Notes under the pieces: generated by a model | Databases searched by the model: none | Told to the model about the DNA's origin: nothing | The model's input: the letters and a program-made list of their open reading frames with translations, nothing else | Position numbers and translations under genes: made by a program | Shown here: positions 1 through 7,782 of the stretch, piece after piece | Layout: each line of letters begins with the position of its first letter | Numbering within the stretch: position 1 is the stretch's first letter | Assembly: GCA_037147375.1 (NCBI GenBank) | Contig: JBAWVI010000039.1 | Location: 1-8,533, forward strand | Length of the DNA stretch: 8,533 bases | Origin: an archaeon | GTDB lineage: Archaea; Iainarchaeota; Iainarchaeia; Iainarchaeales; CSSED10-239 | Direction of reading: 5' to 3'

Positions 1-779
1 AGATGATTAAGCATTGCTGATTCATAACCAAAGGATGCTGGAAAGGAAGAAGCATGATGTCCGAAATCAAGATCAACTTTAAGAGCAAGTCTTGCTGCTT
101 TGATATCATCTGTTTCAAAATCATTTGTTTCTGTTAAATATAAAATAATTCCTTCTTTAAACTTGCTTTTCATGAAAAGCTTTCCTACCCTGTGTGTTAT
201 TTCTCTAGTTCCACCAAATCTTTGTTCTCCAAAATAATTAATTAATCCGTTTCTTTGAATTTGTGAAATACATTCTTCTGTAATTGATCTTATTTGTTCT
301 TCTGATAAATCTTTTATTTGTCTAATTGTAACTATAAATTTATTGTCTTTTAAGTCTCCAATATCTATTCTATTCTTTGACCAAGTTGGATCATAAACCT
401 TAATTGTTTTGAAATAAAATTTTTTTAATCTTTCTAGAGAGGGTTCAAAGATTGATATTCTTTGACTCGTTAGAGCTCTCTTATCTTTAAGTCCTGCATA
501 ACCAATTCTTTTTTTACTTGTATGAAGAAATCTTGACATTTGAGAGATTGCAACTGTTGTTGCAAGATTGTTTTTCTCCATAGTTACGTGAAGATAATCT
601 TCTTTATCATTCTTTCTTGAAAAAATAGTGTCCCAATCAAGCTCAGGAAGAAGTTTATCTGGAAGATATTTAACTTCTGTATTGTATGTTTCTCCAATTT
701 CAGAAACTATGAAATCTTCAGATATTTCTTTTATTCTTCCATTAATTGGAGATGTGTTTGTTATATATTTAAATTCCAT
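1..779 (-). CDS. truD: tRNA pseudouridine synthase, TruD/Pus7 family; N-terminal ~259 codons only (3' end lies beyond the left window edge)
   Basis: Absent from the ORF track because it has no stop in the window. My hand translation of the minus strand from ATG 779..777 stays open to position 1: MEFKYITNTSPINGRIKEISEDFIVSEIGE...RIGYAGLKDKRALTSQRISIFEP...GLINYFGEQRFGGTREITHRVGK... It carries the two TruD-family signature blocks: GxKDKxAxTxQ with the catalytic Asp (462..503) and NYFGxQRFG (213..239). Confidence 0.85.
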   Translation of the reverse strand, partial: MEFKYITNTSPINGRIKEISEDFIVSEIGETYNTEVKYLPDKLLPELDWDTIFSRKNDKEDYLHVTMEKNNLATTVAISQMSRFLHTSKKRIGYAGLKDKRALTSQRISIFEPSLERLKKFYFKTIKVYDPTWSKNRIDIGDLKDNKFIVTIRQIKDLSEEQIRSITEECISQIQRNGLINYFGEQRFGGTREITHRVGKLFMKSKFKEGIILYLTETNDFETDDIKAARLALKVDLDFGHHASSFPASFGYESAMLNH

Positions 780-800
780 AAGTTATCGATTTACCTAAAT

Positions 801-3545
801 TTATACTTTATATCTTAAGAAAGCACCAAGTCCACCAAATGTTTCAAAGAATAGTTTTCCTTCTGGTGAATCCACAGAAATAAGTTCAACTTTTGTGCTT
901 GTGTTTTCTGCAACCTCAACAAAGTAATCAAAGATATCTAATTCTTCAATTAATTCTGATTCCTTACTACATGAAGAGCATACTGCTTGTTCTTTCTTTT
1001 CTTCTTTTTCTGGATCTCTAACTATCTTATAATCTATAGTACCACAAGAATTACATTTGTACTTGTGTGCCATCCATGTTATTCCTTCGGAGAGAAGAAT
1101 AGTATCTACTTGTCCAAGATCTAATGAAGTTAATACTTCTCTATAACCATATGTTGCAAGTTCATTCTTTGCAACCTTTTCAACAAACTTATTAACGATT
1201 GCTCTTTCTTTCATTACTCCTACTTCTTTTAGAATATCTCCTGATTTGTCAAGTATTTCCTTAATACCAGATTCATCAGTGTAGGATGTGTCTATTGTTC
1301 CTAGAACTTTATTTTTAATTCTATGATCAAGGTCTCCTGCTTCTAAAAACCAATTTTTAGAGTGACCGGGTCCACCAACCACAATTCCTTTAAGTTTTTC
1401 AACACCAACAAAAGATGCATTTACTTTTTCTCCAACTCTTTTGTAAAAGTCCTCTTCTGCTTTTTCTCTTAGTCTTTCAAAACGATGAGATGAATTATGA
1501 ACCACAAGCCCATTTGCAATAAAGTTTTGGTTCTTTACAGTAATGTCTACCATTGAAGTATCTTTTGCTTTTTGAATGTGTATCTTATTTATTTTAACAG
1601 GAATTACTGGGTAATCCATTATTTTTTTTAAGTCTGCATATAGTTTTTTATCTTTGATTCTTTTTAATATTGAGTTTTCGAAAGTTGCTTTACCCATCAT
1701 TCTTTTATTATTAAAGAAAGCACTAACTTTTGGGAATAATTCTAGATTATATCCTTTGCTTTCAATTAATTTTCTAATAATACTACCGGACACGATTATC
1801 TGTCTTGATCGTTCCATATCTGATTTCTTATTAATTACTTTATTTAAGACAAGTAACTTTTTGCTTGATGTAAATCCAATTTCTTTTTTAAATATATTTA
1901 ATGATTCTTTTTCAGTAATAGATATTGTAAATCTATGATTGTCAGTATATGGATTCATGTGATTATCATATTCTACTAAAGAAGAAATTATTGAAAATCT
2001 TAATAAAACTAATTGTACTTGTTGAGCTAGTTTTTTATTATTTATACCAAAACCTATTCCTCTATCTAGATTAACATATCCTTCTGCATCAAATAATCCT
2101 TTTAAAAAACTTGCAATTACATAATTTGGAGAATATAATATCTTTTGTGGAATTAATGTATCTCTTGCTTTTTTAAGTTCAGGAAATTCTTCTTTAATTA
2201 GTCTTACAAGAGGCCTACTTGTGAATCTTAATTGATGATAATTCTTTATATCTCTAAATCTATAACTTGAGTCTACTGAAAAATAAGAATCAAATTTTTG
2301 TTTGTAGTATAAGGCCACATCTTTGCTTTGCTCAGAAAAAGTAATTCTATCTTCTTCAAAACTACCATCGCCTGCAAAATAACCAATGAATTGAGCGAGC
2401 TCTTTATCAAGTTTAGTTGGAAGCTTGATGTTTGTGTAGATTGTATTTATTGTATATTTTTTTAAAAAATTAGAATAATTTATTTTTAATTTATTACAAA
2501 TCTGTTCTAAAAGCTCTCTGTTTGTATTTTTTTTACCTAATTCTATTGATGAAATTGCGGTTTGAGTTACCCCTAGTTCTTTTGCGAACACTTTTTGAAA
2601 TAATTTTCTTTTTTCTCTTTCTTTTTTTAGTAAGTTTCTTCCTTCTTCTGTTATTGTAAATGAATTATAATATTTCTTTGAATCTATCATTTGAAGAGAA
2701 CCCTTAACATCTATCTTCTCTGGCATTATAAGTGTATCTCCTTCAATTAGATATTCTGCTGCTTTTTCAATAACTTCAGTTCCTGTATGAACAAAGAAAA
2801 GGTGATCCTTACTGGATTGAATTTCAAGTCTTGGTTCTTTTGTAATTATTGTATATACTTCATTTTTCTTTGTGTTCCATTTATTTGAAACCATAGAGTC
2901 AAGTAGATTATAATTATTAAAATTAATTGATTTAACTTCTTGTTTCTTAGAAAGTTCTTCGATATCGATTATGTTTCCATTTGATAATTGAATAAATGCG
3001 TTTCTTAGACATTGTCCACCAGCACGTGATTTTCCAGGAACTGCTGATGTTTCGTTACTAAGTATCTGAATTGCTTTTCCTCTTAATAGAGCAATAGTTG
3101 CTTCTCTCTTATCAACTGCAATAAAACCATAAACCTCATCAGTTTCTGCCATCTCTTCAAGTGGAGTTGTGTGAAAAGCAGAATCACACCAATAAAGCTT
3201 GGTTGTTAATCTTTTTGGTGGAATTACTTCAAGAAGAGTTACATCTGATTTTGATGGATTTGTTGAAACGTCTCCTGAAAAAAGAACAAGTCCTGTTTCA
3301 GGTAACTTAAAATCAATTTGTCTTAAGTAATTAATTATTCGCTTTAAGGCTGCTTGAACGTTCTTTCTAGTCTGAGAGCTCTTTATGTTTGATGATTGAC
3401 TTTGTTCATCTGTTAATTGCTTAGTAACTGAACTTCTGTCAGCATCAGGTGGAAGGTATACACTAATTAATTGTGTTCCTGTTCCACGGAACTTCTTAAT
3501 CGCCTTAAGCTTCTTTTTTAATAATAATAAATTTGTTTCATCCAT
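801..3545 (-). CDS. prf1: Archaeal peptide chain release factor aRF1 (eRF1 family) precursor containing a 506-aa intein; predicted spliced product 408 aa
   Basis: 914-aa ORF. N-extein residues 1-178 carry NIKS (res 53-56, 3378..3389), YxCxxxF (YWCDSAF, res 118-124) and end in GKSRAGGQ. C-extein residues 685-914 begin SSHRFERLREKAEEDFY, so excision restores the canonical GGQ-S-x-x-RF-x-RLR. The remainder (VVGGPGHSKNWF..., GGLGAFLRY) is typical of eRF1 domains 2-3. TAA stop at 801..803. Confidence 0.95.
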   Translation of the reverse strand: MDETNLLLLKKKLKAIKKFRGTGTQLISVYLPPDADRSSVTKQLTDEQSQSSNIKSSQTRKNVQAALKRIINYLRQIDFKLPETGLVLFSGDVSTNPSKSDVTLLEVIPPKRLTTKLYWCDSAFHTTPLEEMAETDEVYGFIAVDKREATIALLRGKAIQILSNETSAVPGKSRAGGQCLRNAFIQLSNGNIIDIEELSKKQEVKSINFNNYNLLDSMVSNKWNTKKNEVYTIITKEPRLEIQSSKDHLFFVHTGTEVIEKAAEYLIEGDTLIMPEKIDVKGSLQMIDSKKYYNSFTITEEGRNLLKKEREKRKLFQKVFAKELGVTQTAISSIELGKKNTNRELLEQICNKLKINYSNFLKKYTINTIYTNIKLPTKLDKELAQFIGYFAGDGSFEEDRITFSEQSKDVALYYKQKFDSYFSVDSSYRFRDIKNYHQLRFTSRPLVRLIKEEFPELKKARDTLIPQKILYSPNYVIASFLKGLFDAEGYVNLDRGIGFGINNKKLAQQVQLVLLRFSIISSLVEYDNHMNPYTDNHRFTISITEKESLNIFKKEIGFTSSKKLLVLNKVINKKSDMERSRQIIVSGSIIRKLIESKGYNLELFPKVSAFFNNKRMMGKATFENSILKRIKDKKLYADLKKIMDYPVIPVKINKIHIQKAKDTSMVDITVKNQNFIANGLVVHNSSHRFERLREKAEEDFYKRVGEKVNASFVGVEKLKGIVVGGPGHSKNWFLEAGDLDHRIKNKVLGTIDTSYTDESGIKEILDKSGDILKEVGVMKERAIVNKFVEKVAKNELATYGYREVLTSLDLGQVDTILLSEGITWMAHKYKCNSCGTIDYKIVRDPEKEEKKEQAVCSSCSKESELIEELDIFDYFVEVAENTSTKVELISVDSPEGKLFFETFGGLGAFLRYKV
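2073..2399 (-). other. LAGLIDADG homing-endonuclease core inside the intein (both dodecapeptide motifs)
   Basis: Motif 1 is LAQFIGYFAGDGS (2361..2399, verified as CTC GCT CAA TTC ATT GGT TAT TTT GCA GGC GAT GGT AGT). Motif 2 is IASFLKGLFDAEGYV (2073..2117). The acidic residues that normally end each motif are both present (Asp in GDG, Glu in AEG), so the nuclease may be active. Confidence 0.8.
2475..2633 (-). other. XRE/Cro-C1-like helix-turn-helix segment embedded in the intein, between the N-terminal splicing domain and the endonuclease
   Basis: Residues ~305-357: LLKKEREKRKLFQKVFAKELGVTQTAISSIELGKKNTNRELLEQICNKLKINY. This follows the HTH_3-type pattern (...R...gl.Q..lA..lGv.q..IS.iE.G.....e.L..i...L.i). 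The identification is by eye only. Confidence 0.55.
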
Positions 3546-4568: not shown

Positions 4569-4622
4569 TATAGAAACTATATCTAATTATAATTAAGTTT
4601 AAGATTGGAGAAAAGGATTGTT

Positions 4623-5039
4623 ATGCAAAAACCAAAAATAAAAATAGCACGTAAAAAACCTACATTTAAGGAAATTAGAGAAAAACTTAAAAAAATAAAT
4701 ACAACAAAAAACAAATCAGTTATAGAAAAAAGAAATGAAGATAGAATTAATAGGCAAAATAAGATTCTTGTTAGTAAACTTGATTCGTTGCTTGAAAAAA
4801 ATGAAAAAGAAACTTTTTCAGAAATTATTAAGCAAATTAAGAATAAAAATATACATCCTAAACCAACATACACATCAGAAGAAGCAAGACTTGCACTTCG
4901 CGAAATTTGTTTAGAGTATGTAAAAGAATATAATCAAAGTCATGCAAGAGAGAAAAAACAAAAAACATATTTAACTTTAGATAGAACTGATCTTAATAAC
5001 CTAAAAGACGAACTTAAGCGTAGATTTTATTTAAAATAA
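4623..5039 (+). CDS. Hypothetical lysine-rich basic protein, paralog 1 (138 aa from ATG 4623; the ORF track starts at TTG 4605)
   Basis: The upstream sequence TTGGAGAAAAGGATTGTT-ATG puts GGAG/AAGGA where an SD is expected, so I prefer the ATG at 4623 over the TTG. The protein is MQKPKIKIARKKPTFKEIREKL... TAA stop. It is paralogous to the next gene. I recognised no family. Confidence 0.55.
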   Translation: MQKPKIKIARKKPTFKEIREKLKKINTTKNKSVIEKRNEDRINRQNKILVSKLDSLLEKNEKETFSEIIKQIKNKNIHPKPTYTSEEARLALREICLEYVKEYNQSHAREKKQKTYLTLDRTDLNNLKDELKRRFYLK

Positions 5040-5044
5040 AACTT

Positions 5045-5053
5045 GGAGATGAT
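5045..5053 (+). promoter_or_regulatory. Shine-Dalgarno GGAGATGAT upstream of paralog 2
   Basis: One mismatch to GGAGGTGAT. It lies 4 nt before ATG 5058 and starts 6 nt after the TAA of paralog 1. Confidence 0.5.
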
Positions 5054-5057
5054 AGTT

Positions 5058-5474
5058 ATGAAACTAAAACCAACCTTTAAGAGTACATTTGGAAAACCAT
5101 TTGGAGTTGTTGCGAGAAAAAAAGGAATAATTAGAGTTAATGAAAGGTTAAGTAAATTAAAAATAGAACCAAAAAGTAAAACAATAAAAAGAGATTTAGT
5201 TAGAAATAAAAGACAAACTCTAATTTTAGAAAAAAAACTAAATGAAATACTTATTAAAAATAAAAAGGAACAAATATCAGAATTAATTAATAAATTCATA
5301 AAAGAAAAAAATCAAGGAAAAGAAAATAAATTCATAAATGAATTTGTACATTCACACATACTTGAAGTTACTAGAGAATACATTAAAACCGCAAGACCAA
5401 AAATAGATGGAGTGGATTATCTCACAGCTTCTGATATAAACGCAATAATTAGAAGAATTATTAGAAAAGTATAA
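5058..5474 (+). CDS. Hypothetical lysine-rich basic protein, paralog 2 (138 aa from ATG 5058; the ORF track starts at TTG 5043)
   Basis: The protein is MKLKPTFKSTFGKPFGVVARKKG... TAA stop at 5472..5474. It shares KPTFK, the (R)xxRQxxIL..KL...L.KN.KE..SE.I block and the LE..(x)EY(V/I)K block with paralog 1. Its length from the preferred ATG is identical to paralog 1. Confidence 0.55.
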   Translation: MKLKPTFKSTFGKPFGVVARKKGIIRVNERLSKLKIEPKSKTIKRDLVRNKRQTLILEKKLNEILIKNKKEQISELINKFIKEKNQGKENKFINEFVHSHILEVTREYIKTARPKIDGVDYLTASDINAIIRRIIRKV

Positions 5475-7032: not shown

Positions 7033-7782
7033 TTACATGTGTGCTAATTGCCTTTTTATTGTTTGATTTAATTTAAGTTTCATAATTTTATTTTTATGTT
7101 GAACTTCTCTTTTTCTGTGCTTTGGTAAGATTGCTTTTCTGAATTTATTTAGTTCAAATGGCTTTTCTGATAAGGATAAATTATTAAGATAATTTATCTT
7201 TGATTTAATTCCAAAATATTCTAACCTATTTTTAATAGCTTTTCCCCAAGTTGAAACACATAATCCTCTATACTCACCAAATGCAGAAATACTTATTTCT
7301 TTGTTTAATTTATTTAAAAATATTTTATTCATGAAATTAGGAGTTGTTATTGCACCAGGTTCAATTCCTTGATTTGGATCATAATTACTAAAAATTACTC
7401 TTTCACTTAGCTTATCTTTTATGAAAAGATTAAATTTAGATAATAGTTCTTTTTGTTCCTTAAGTGTTTCATTAAACCGTTGCGCATTCATTTTATAGGT
7501 TTCAAGTGTCATTTTATTTGAATAATTTTCATATCCTCTTAATTTTGGTTCGAAAACAATCAATATAGCATCTTTGTTTTCAGAAATTTTATTTATTTGC
7601 TTACCATAAATTCCTAGAGTTTTTTTCAAGATATCATTTGTACGTTTATCTCCTAATTTAATCTGTTTTATTATTGGATTTTCACGAGTGTCATTAATTA
7701 CTTGTCTTAAAAAACCTCTCATAATTATTAAATCGTATAATGGATGAACTAATAAATATATTTTATTATATTTCTCGCCCAT
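7033..7782 (-). CDS. Hypothetical protein, 249 aa: predicted alpha/beta body with a strongly basic C-terminal tail, immediately upstream of herA
   Basis: ATG start preceded by TAAGGTAA, TAA stop. Hydrophobic strand-like segments alternate with helical segments (IYLLVHP, AILIVFEP, VIFSNYDP, ISISAFGEYRGLCV). The tail is KFRKAILPKHRKREVQHKNKIMKLKLNQTIKRQLAHM. I found no NurA, Mre11 or other recognisable signature. Confidence 0.6.
   Translation of the reverse strand: MGEKYNKIYLLVHPLYDLIIMRGFLRQVINDTRENPIIKQIKLGDKRTNDILKKTLGIYGKQINKISENKDAILIVFEPKLRGYENYSNKMTLETYKMNAQRFNETLKEQKELLSKFNLFIKDKLSERVIFSNYDPNQGIEPGAITTPNFMNKIFLNKLNKEISISAFGEYRGLCVSTWGKAIKNRLEYFGIKSKINYLNNLSLSEKPFELNKFRKAILPKHRKREVQHKNKIMKLKLNQTIKRQLAHM

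Follow-up and report, generated by a model that had tools for sequence, protein, structure and literature searches.

Inteins in which the Hint splicing domain is split by a double-motif LAGLIDADG homing endonuclease together with helical DNA-binding modules are known in archaea from TliVMA and PhoVMA (7qss and 7qst), PI-PfuI (1dq3) and PI-PkoII/TkoII (2cw7); in each case the host is an essential protein, interrupted in a catalytic motif. Nuclease-bearing inteins are known to have accessory domains that bind DNA (PMC8966425). Among the archaeal intein hosts, a 2016 survey by Novikova (PMC4760082) names aIF2/IF-2, and according to the same survey core translation components hold few inteins. Here we report the same split-Hint architecture, likewise inserted in a catalytic motif, in the archaeal class-I release factor aRF1. 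The gene lies on an 8,533-nucleotide stretch of contig JBAWVI010000039.1 (the whole of which is hereafter called the window) from a DPANN archaeon related to Iainarchaeota. The insert is very probably a class-1 intein of canonical type that acts as a selfish element and not as a regulator of its host; nested in it are a LAGLIDADG nuclease with two motifs and an accessory helix-turn-helix (HTH) domain of the XRE type.

The open reading frame (ORF) encodes 914 amino acids (aa), of which residues 1-178 finish in ...GKSRAGGQ, residues 179-684 form a 506-aa insert that begins with Cys179 and ends in VVHN, and the remainder resumes with Ser685 followed by SHRFERLRE. In a profile search with the whole protein the flanks matched Pfam eRF1_1, eRF1_2 and eRF1_3, while NCBIfam TIGR03676 (aRF1) was matched in two stretches at 439.7 bits (cutoff 234.7). 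With these three domains and the NIKS, YWCDSAF and GGQ motifs, the interrupted protein has all the hallmarks of an aRF1/eRF1. The insert, on the other hand, matched Pfam Intein_splicing (E 1.4e-14; 59.8 bits with the insert alone, cutoff 35.8) and LAGLIDADG_3 (E 2e-20), the NCBIfam models of intein N- and C-termini (TIGR01445 and TIGR01443), and the intein parts of several NCBIfam "intein-containing" models, including the IF-2 model. An earlier inspection of the nucleotides alone (the sequence-only reading) had proposed that an intein interrupts aRF1 within its GGQ loop. Translation reproduced to the residue its 914-aa ORF, its residue positions, Cys179, the terminal His-Asn and Ser685, and the profiles assigned the flanks to aRF1 and residues 179-684 to both the Hint/intein and the LAGLIDADG families.

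The same reading had held that excision rebuilds GGQ-S..RF.RLR in a 408-aa protein. When spliced in silico, the 408-aa product aligned end to end with Halobacterium aRF1 4af1 (E 1.2e-83), without a gap at GGQ^S (the caret marks a junction), and it was likewise gapless at this point against human eRF1. Moreover, such a protein exists naturally: a search with the spliced extein retrieved two intein-free alleles, P0121 (93% identical) and P0122 (90% identical), both of which are exactly 408 aa long.

The contigs of these two alleles (L001; L002-L006) share the order of the window, i.e., phosphoribosyltransferase, small ORF and aRF1. By blastn, positions 652-2124 of the intein-free contig L001 corresponded to 4533-3011 of the window, and positions 2124-2816 corresponded to 1493-801. 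Thus DNA homology breaks at window positions 3011 and 1493, and the intein ends exactly where predicted. An intein-bearing allele with the same synteny was also found (P0001 on contig L007, 91% identical). The empty site of L001 reads GCTGGTGGTCAA^TCTTCTCATCGT, from which the homing site deduced in the sequence-only reading is only 2 of 24 bases off; the empty site of L002 differs from the predicted one at 11 of the 24 bases.

To describe conservation, 123 intein-bearing aRF1s were aligned and their inteins excised by alignment-based cutting. At the upstream junction (GGQ^C), Cys occupied intein position 1 in 122 of the 123, the sole exception being an N-terminally truncated sequence, and at the downstream junction (HN^S) the His-Asn pair and Ser+1 were present in all 123. 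In block B (S-K-D-H) the Ser and His were invariant, as was the Asp of block F (Asp489). The nuclease residues were nearly as constant: the Asp of the first LAGLIDADG motif was found in 119 of 121 sequences and the Glu/Asp of the second in 118 of 122. This agrees with the earlier judgement that the splicing and nuclease residues of the window are intact. Modelled by AlphaFold2 with 84 homologues, the 506-aa intein reached a mean predicted local distance difference test score (pLDDT) of 94.8 and a predicted template modelling score (pTM) of 0.93. Colinear flanks, nucleophiles at positions 1 and +1, blocks B, F and G and a Hint fold are together those of a class-1 intein, and by these features the protein is predicted to splice; two helices ending in Asp215 and Glu310 within an I-DmoI-like fold are those of a monomeric double-motif LAGLIDADG nuclease. 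The intein is canonical in every tested respect.

An additional domain lies between the splicing and the nuclease parts. HTH_3 was matched at precursor residues 306-356 (E 3e-9; 37.2-38.4 bits, above the curated Pfam cutoff of 23) and appeared as a five-helix bundle in the model, both as in an XRE-type HTH. The splicing and nuclease parts listed by the sequence-only reading stood, but this domain between them had been overlooked. The HTH is missing from variants of ~430 aa and is dispensable in 12 of the 123 aRF1 inteins, which are otherwise intact. Conversely, the order Hint-N, HTH_3, LAGLIDADG, Hint-C recurs in related inteins that are 26-32% identical over the full 506 aa and reside in other hosts: FttA/aCPSF1 (P0312), a metallo-beta-lactamase-fold protein (P0308), dCMP deaminase (P0347), DHH/GAN (P0350) and others (P0309 and P0323). 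The HTH is lacking in the sister inteins of RadA and in part of those of DHH proteins. As the HTH recurs in inteins of other hosts and is dispensable in some aRF1 inteins, it travels with the nuclease and not with aRF1. It is most likely an accessory DNA-binding module of the homing endonuclease, and the HTH_3-equipped homing inteins look like a family of their own. One of the sister hosts, FttA/aCPSF1, is itself an archaeal transcription termination factor. Besides Cys1, the only Cys of the intein is Cys172 (precursor residue 350, window 2496-2498), which sits in the HTH; 105 of 109 HTH-bearing inteins share this residue, whose role could be either merely structural or that of a redox partner of Cys1.

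The intein at the GGQ site is common in DPANN archaea. A search with the full precursor, in which clusters were formed at 90% identity and counts refer to the matches listed, yielded at least 120 clusters of intein-bearing aRF1s of 836-921 aa, all of them with eRF1, Intein_splicing and LAGLIDADG_3 domains, and with source names that include Woesearchaeota, Nanoarchaeota, Diapherotrites and Ca. Iainarchaeum. A HMMER search of 1.84 billion representatives at 50% identity with the intein alone gave 2560 matches at E <= 1e-3; among the best 150 of these, ~49 were aRF1s with the intein after GGx. Scanning of GTDB species genomes found at least ~40 genomes that carry an intein at the GGQ site of aRF1, labeled as Woesearchaeota, Nanoarchaeota, Pacearchaeota, Iainarchaeum/Forterrea, Aenigmatarchaeota, Micrarchaeota and the Nanohalarchaeota family Asbonarchaeaceae; two of them are complete chromosomes, CP045477.1 (Ca. 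Forterrea multitransposorum) and CP058998.1 (Ca. Fermentimicrarchaeum limneticum). The inteins at this one site come in several sizes: 577 aa, ~505 aa (with HTH), ~430 aa (HTH-less), and mini forms of 271 and 139-144 aa.

These forms are patchily distributed. The exteins nearest to that of the window, at 93% and 90% identity, are intein-free, and below ~72% extein identity intein-free, HTH-less, mini and HTH-bearing forms are interleaved. Apart from those of P0001 and P0002, the closest inteins (56-61% identical) belong to ~871-aa aRF1s of Woesearchaeota and Nanoarchaeota, whose exteins are only 38-46% identical to that of the window; on the other hand, the intein-bearing alleles with the next-closest exteins (68%, P0001 excluded) carry HTH-less inteins that are only 50-55% identical to that of the window. 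Among HTH-bearing pairs, intein identity exceeded extein identity by more than 10 points in 10%. Overall, intein and extein identities correlated with a Pearson coefficient of 0.66 and a Spearman coefficient of 0.46. Host genes are often less conserved than the intein that they carry, which points to horizontal spread.

Between the window and L007, the ratio of nonsynonymous to synonymous substitution rates (dN/dS) was 0.069 for the whole intein (0.072 for Hint-N, 0.146 for the HTH, 0.077 for the nuclease and 0.039 for Hint-C) and 0.085 for the extein; the intein is under purifying selection. The dS of the intein was 0.98, whereas the extein and all but one of the five neighbor genes compared had values of 0.42-0.58, suggesting that the two inteins diverged before their host genomes and derive from different circulating intein lineages. 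Base composition was considered as a sign of foreign origin and rejected: the guanine-plus-cytosine (GC) content of the intein (0.26) is near the window mean (0.28), and the exteins (0.33-0.35) are simply GC-richer. The population signature of homing is present, in the form of presence/absence polymorphism among exteins that are 90-95% identical and share synteny, and of discordance between intein and host. Both agree with the still-mobile element that had been supposed from the intact residues.

A mechanism can be proposed from these features. After translation of the 914-aa precursor, Cys179 would undergo an N-S acyl shift at Gln178-Cys179, the resulting thioester would be attacked by Ser685, Asn684 would cyclise and so release the intein, and an O-N shift would produce the 408-aa aRF1 with an intact GGQ-S loop. 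The free intein would then cut intein-less aRF1 alleles around GCTGGTGG(A/T)CAA^TC(A/T)TCTCATCGT, with the HTH supplying extra DNA contacts, and repair of the cut allele would copy the intein in. The intein would thereby be a selfish element parked where the host cannot change the site. The tip of the GGQ loop must enter the peptidyl-transferase centre, and since the unspliced precursor would bear a 58-kDa domain at this very tip, it would very likely be inactive. Provided that aRF1 is single-copy, it is plausible that all termination in this organism depends on splicing. With no second copy, protein splicing would be needed before any ribosome terminates, and the intein could be both a weak point of its host and a natural setting for studying how efficiently splicing proceeds.

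Several observations weigh against this explanation: i) the long persistence of the intein in several phyla, with all its domains under strong purifying selection, would be compatible with a benefit to the host as well; ii) the conserved Cys172 may leave room for a redox trap with Cys1; and iii) the excess of dS in the intein, taken above as a sign of separate lineages, could be partly a composition effect. A regulatory switch, in which splicing conditional on redox state, temperature or other stress gates active aRF1 and hence termination and readthrough, had been raised by the sequence-only reading. It is made attractive by insertion in the catalytic loop of an essential factor, by retention of the intein with intact residues across DPANN phyla, by the possibility in principle of pairing between Cys172 and Cys1, and by the conditional splicing documented for other archaeal inteins (e.g., RadA; PMC4513877). 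Yet close relatives with 93% and 90% identical exteins and the same synteny manage without the intein, HTH-less and mini-inteins occupy the same site as expected from the life cycle of a selfish element, and the HTH module is common to inteins of unrelated hosts. Moreover, at the intein of the window Ser is found at +1 and no Cys in the proximal N-extein (...SNETSAVPGKSRAGGQ), and the known C1-C+1 and C-3-C1 disulfide traps are therefore unavailable. With free, full, truncated and mini forms behaving as those of a selfish element, the proposed tuning of termination was not borne out, and we regard such a switch as quite unlikely. An alternative in which the endonuclease no longer homes, leaving a fixed relic that splices and is inherited vertically with occasional loss, would account for the many DPANN lineages with an intein at one site and for the overall correlation of intein and extein identities. 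It is unlikely too, as the nuclease retains a dN/dS of 0.077 and its catalytic Asp/Glu, ~10% of pairs have an intein identity more than 10 points above that of the extein, the intein of the window is closest to those of distant hosts, exteins of 90-95% identity are polymorphic for its presence, and its dS is ~2-fold that of the flanking genome.

That the excised, HTH-bearing intein moonlights as a transcription factor of the host, in the manner of domesticated LAGLIDADG proteins such as WhiA, we consider very unlikely: the nuclease has kept the catalytic residues that WhiA has not, the HTH is dispensable in 12 of the 123 otherwise intact inteins and recurs in inteins of other hosts, and DNA-binding accessory domains are known in homing inteins (PMC8966425), even though its HTH_3 is a genuine XRE-type domain (37-38 bits, cutoff 23) on which purifying selection acts (dN/dS 0.146) and the model has a weak Foldseek match to WhiA. 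A bolder proposal combines these ideas, namely that in DPANN archaea the intein is more than a parasite, either because its splicing is gated by a Cys1-Cys172 disulfide or by binding of nucleic acid to the HTH, making aRF1 supply, termination and readthrough responsive to conditions, or because the excised intein is a DNA-binding regulator; we give it little credence. Finally, the insert might not be a real intein at all but either the product of a chimeric assembly or a permanent inserted domain that the mature protein keeps. Only the a priori possibility of such errors in metagenomic contigs speaks for this, and we count it as refuted: over 120 independent clusters and ~40 genomes, two of them complete chromosomes, share the architecture, the splice-junction residues are invariant, the Hint fold is predicted with high confidence, and the blastn match to an intein-free contig breaks exactly at the predicted junctions. 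The best explanation thus remains the selfish class-1 homing intein.

A further site in aRF1 is occupied in some lineages. P0291 (1187 aa) and P0302 (1452 aa) contain two inteins each, one at the GGQ site and the other inside the YxCxxxF stop-codon-recognition motif (...YLYM^C...HN^CDDHY...), where the Cys of the motif serves as the +1 nucleophile by position. Thus aRF1 has at least two insertion sites, both in functional motifs.

In many intein-bearing aRF1s of Aenigmatarchaeota and some Woesearchaeota the junctions read GG[M/W/F]^C...HN^SQ as compared with the usual GGQ^C...HN^SA. A search with one spliced extein of the GG[M/W/F] type returned 116 scorable intein-free top matches (58-90% identical), many of them named aRF-1 of Aenigmatarchaeota, and GGQ was lacking in all 116: GGM-SQ was found in 103, GGM-SA in 7, GGF-SQ in 4 and GGM-SS in 2. 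These GGQ-less aRF1s keep NIKS, YxCxxxF and all three domains. Vms1-like release factors are reported to have GGxSQ as their catalytic motif (PMC6514570), and the catalytic Gln of these lineages may therefore have been displaced by two residues. We found no literature on GGQ-less aRF1s, and the loss of GGQ may surprise more than the intein itself.

The features of the precursor gene, its intein and the homing site, together with the GGQ-less loci, are collected in Table 1.

Table 1. Positions of the aRF1 precursor gene, its exteins, the parts of the intein and the reconstructed homing site in the window, and of aRF1 loci without GGQ on other contigs.
Feature	Position	Strand	Remarks
aRF1 precursor gene, 914 aa + stop	801..3545	-	NCBI MEI8364438.1 "LAGLIDADG family homing endonuclease"
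N-extein (residues 1-178), comprising domain N of aRF1 with NIKS and YWCDSAF, and domain M as far as GGQ	3012..3545	-	
Reconstructed homing site, left half GCTGGTGGACAA	3012..3023	-	
Intein, 506 aa, Cys1 to Asn506 (precursor residues 179-684)	1494..3011	-	Profiles, blastn breakpoints, model
Hint splicing domain, N-terminal part (blocks A, B)	2652..3011	-	
Block B SSKDHLFF	2793..2816	-	Ser and His invariant, 123 sequences
XRE-type HTH accessory domain (Pfam HTH_3), five helices, intein residues 122-186	2454..2648	-	
Double-motif LAGLIDADG homing endonuclease domain	1866..2423	-	
LAGLIDADG motif 1 ...FIGYFAGDGS, Asp215	2367..2369	-	
LAGLIDADG motif 2 ...LKGLFDAEGY, Glu310	2082..2084	-	
Helical region, intein residues 383-465, between nuclease and C-terminal Hint strands	1617..1865	-	Secondary structure of model
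Intein part C-terminal to helical region	1494..1616	-	
Reconstructed homing site, right half TCATCTCATCGT	1482..1493	-	
C-extein, residues 685-914 + stop: Ser+1, SHRFERLRE, rest of domain M, domain C	801..1493	-	
GGQ-less aRF1 loci	L034:2419-4821; L042:3-2240; L046:2419-5010; L047:2455-5094		Proteins P0387-P0506, P0258-P0318

The neighborhood of aRF1 is variable as well. Downstream of the gene the window runs directly into a TruD-like gene, as do L002-L004; the region 1..800, which is without an ORF, was considered as the place of a missing downstream gene, a notion that was rejected because the region is the start of the TruD gene running off the window end. In L001 (2843-3394) and L007 (10772-11323) an extra Lys-rich gene of 183 aa adjoins aRF1, so that this population is polymorphic for the presence of a second element. 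Two tandem Lys-rich paralogous ORFs of 144 and 143 aa (window 4605-5039 and 5043-5474, + strand), which are 37% identical to each other and have no Pfam match, lie on the strand opposite to all neighbors and coincide with a flip of the AT skew; L007 has one copy. A 249-aa ORF (window 7033-7782, - strand), also without a Pfam match, is only 62% identical to its counterpart in L007 (dN 0.25, dS 1.17), as compared with 90-98% identity for neighbor genes, and is a fast-evolving or exchanged gene. Scans of the window for tRNA and Rfam families gave no match.

In the full text of 8 million papers and preprints our searches met with no account of an aRF1 or eRF1 that carries a natural intein; no release factor is named as an intein host in the main text of the Novikova survey (PMC4760082), and the Anaeramoeba intein paper has no release factor host. 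The sequence-only reading had not counted aRF1 among the classic hosts, and on its novelty the outcome is divided: no published description was found, but the insertion is already abundant in public databases. There it is usually mis-named. We are dealing with a textbook intein in an unlisted host. Some copies bear the automatic JGI name [quoted passage not shown], and NCBI names many relatives "helix-turn-helix domain-containing protein". Since NCBI names such proteins as endonucleases or HTH proteins, the essential aRF1 can look absent from DPANN genomes. The finding adds a class-I release factor to the hosts of inteins and, with insertions in the universally conserved GGQ and, in some relatives, in YxCxxxF, provides a very clean case of targeting of sites that the host cannot mutate, and the series of empty, full, HTH-less and mini alleles makes a good system for the homing cycle and for modular accessory DNA-binding domains in uncultured DPANN archaea.

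Among known systems, the archaeal LAGLIDADG inteins are the best structural matches (E 2.7e-23 to 1.9e-19, TM-scores 0.6-0.75) and the best PDB sequence matches of the aRF1 intein, although their sequence identity to it is only 12-19% and the aRF1 host and the GGQ^S site are different from theirs. In Foldseek searches with the intein model, the best PDB match was the TliVMA intein 7qss (E 2.7e-23, TMt 0.75), followed by PI-PkoII 2cw7 (E 1.5e-19) and PI-PfuI 1dq3 (E 1.9e-19), with PI-SceI ranked lower; I-DmoI matched the nuclease core only. The aRF1 intein carries HTH_3 between Hint-N and the nuclease, where the VMA inteins have an unstructured loop of 28-32 residues (PMC8966425). After the nuclease, in the position of the helical region 383-465 of the aRF1 intein, the VMA and PI-TkoII inteins have their accessory domain (PMC8966425). 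PI-SceI, the intein of yeast VMA1, is likewise a class-1 intein with a LAGLIDADG nuclease, and its DNA recognition region (DRR) is also found between Hint blocks A/B and the nuclease in sequence order, although its global superposition with our model is weak (TM-score ~0.4). The HTH may play a part like that of the DRR in PI-SceI and of the HTH-like accessory domains in TliVMA and PI-TkoII (PMC8966425). Closest in domain order are the HTH_3 sister inteins (P0312, P0347, P0350, P0308, P0309 and P0323), which share that order and differ in host gene and insertion site; as far as we found, they are uncharacterised metagenomic proteins. In its choice of host the aRF1 intein resembles those of aIF2/IF-2, which are likewise selfish inteins in an essential, conserved translation factor. 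The host and the site are neat and previously unremarked, and the intein itself holds no mechanistic surprise.

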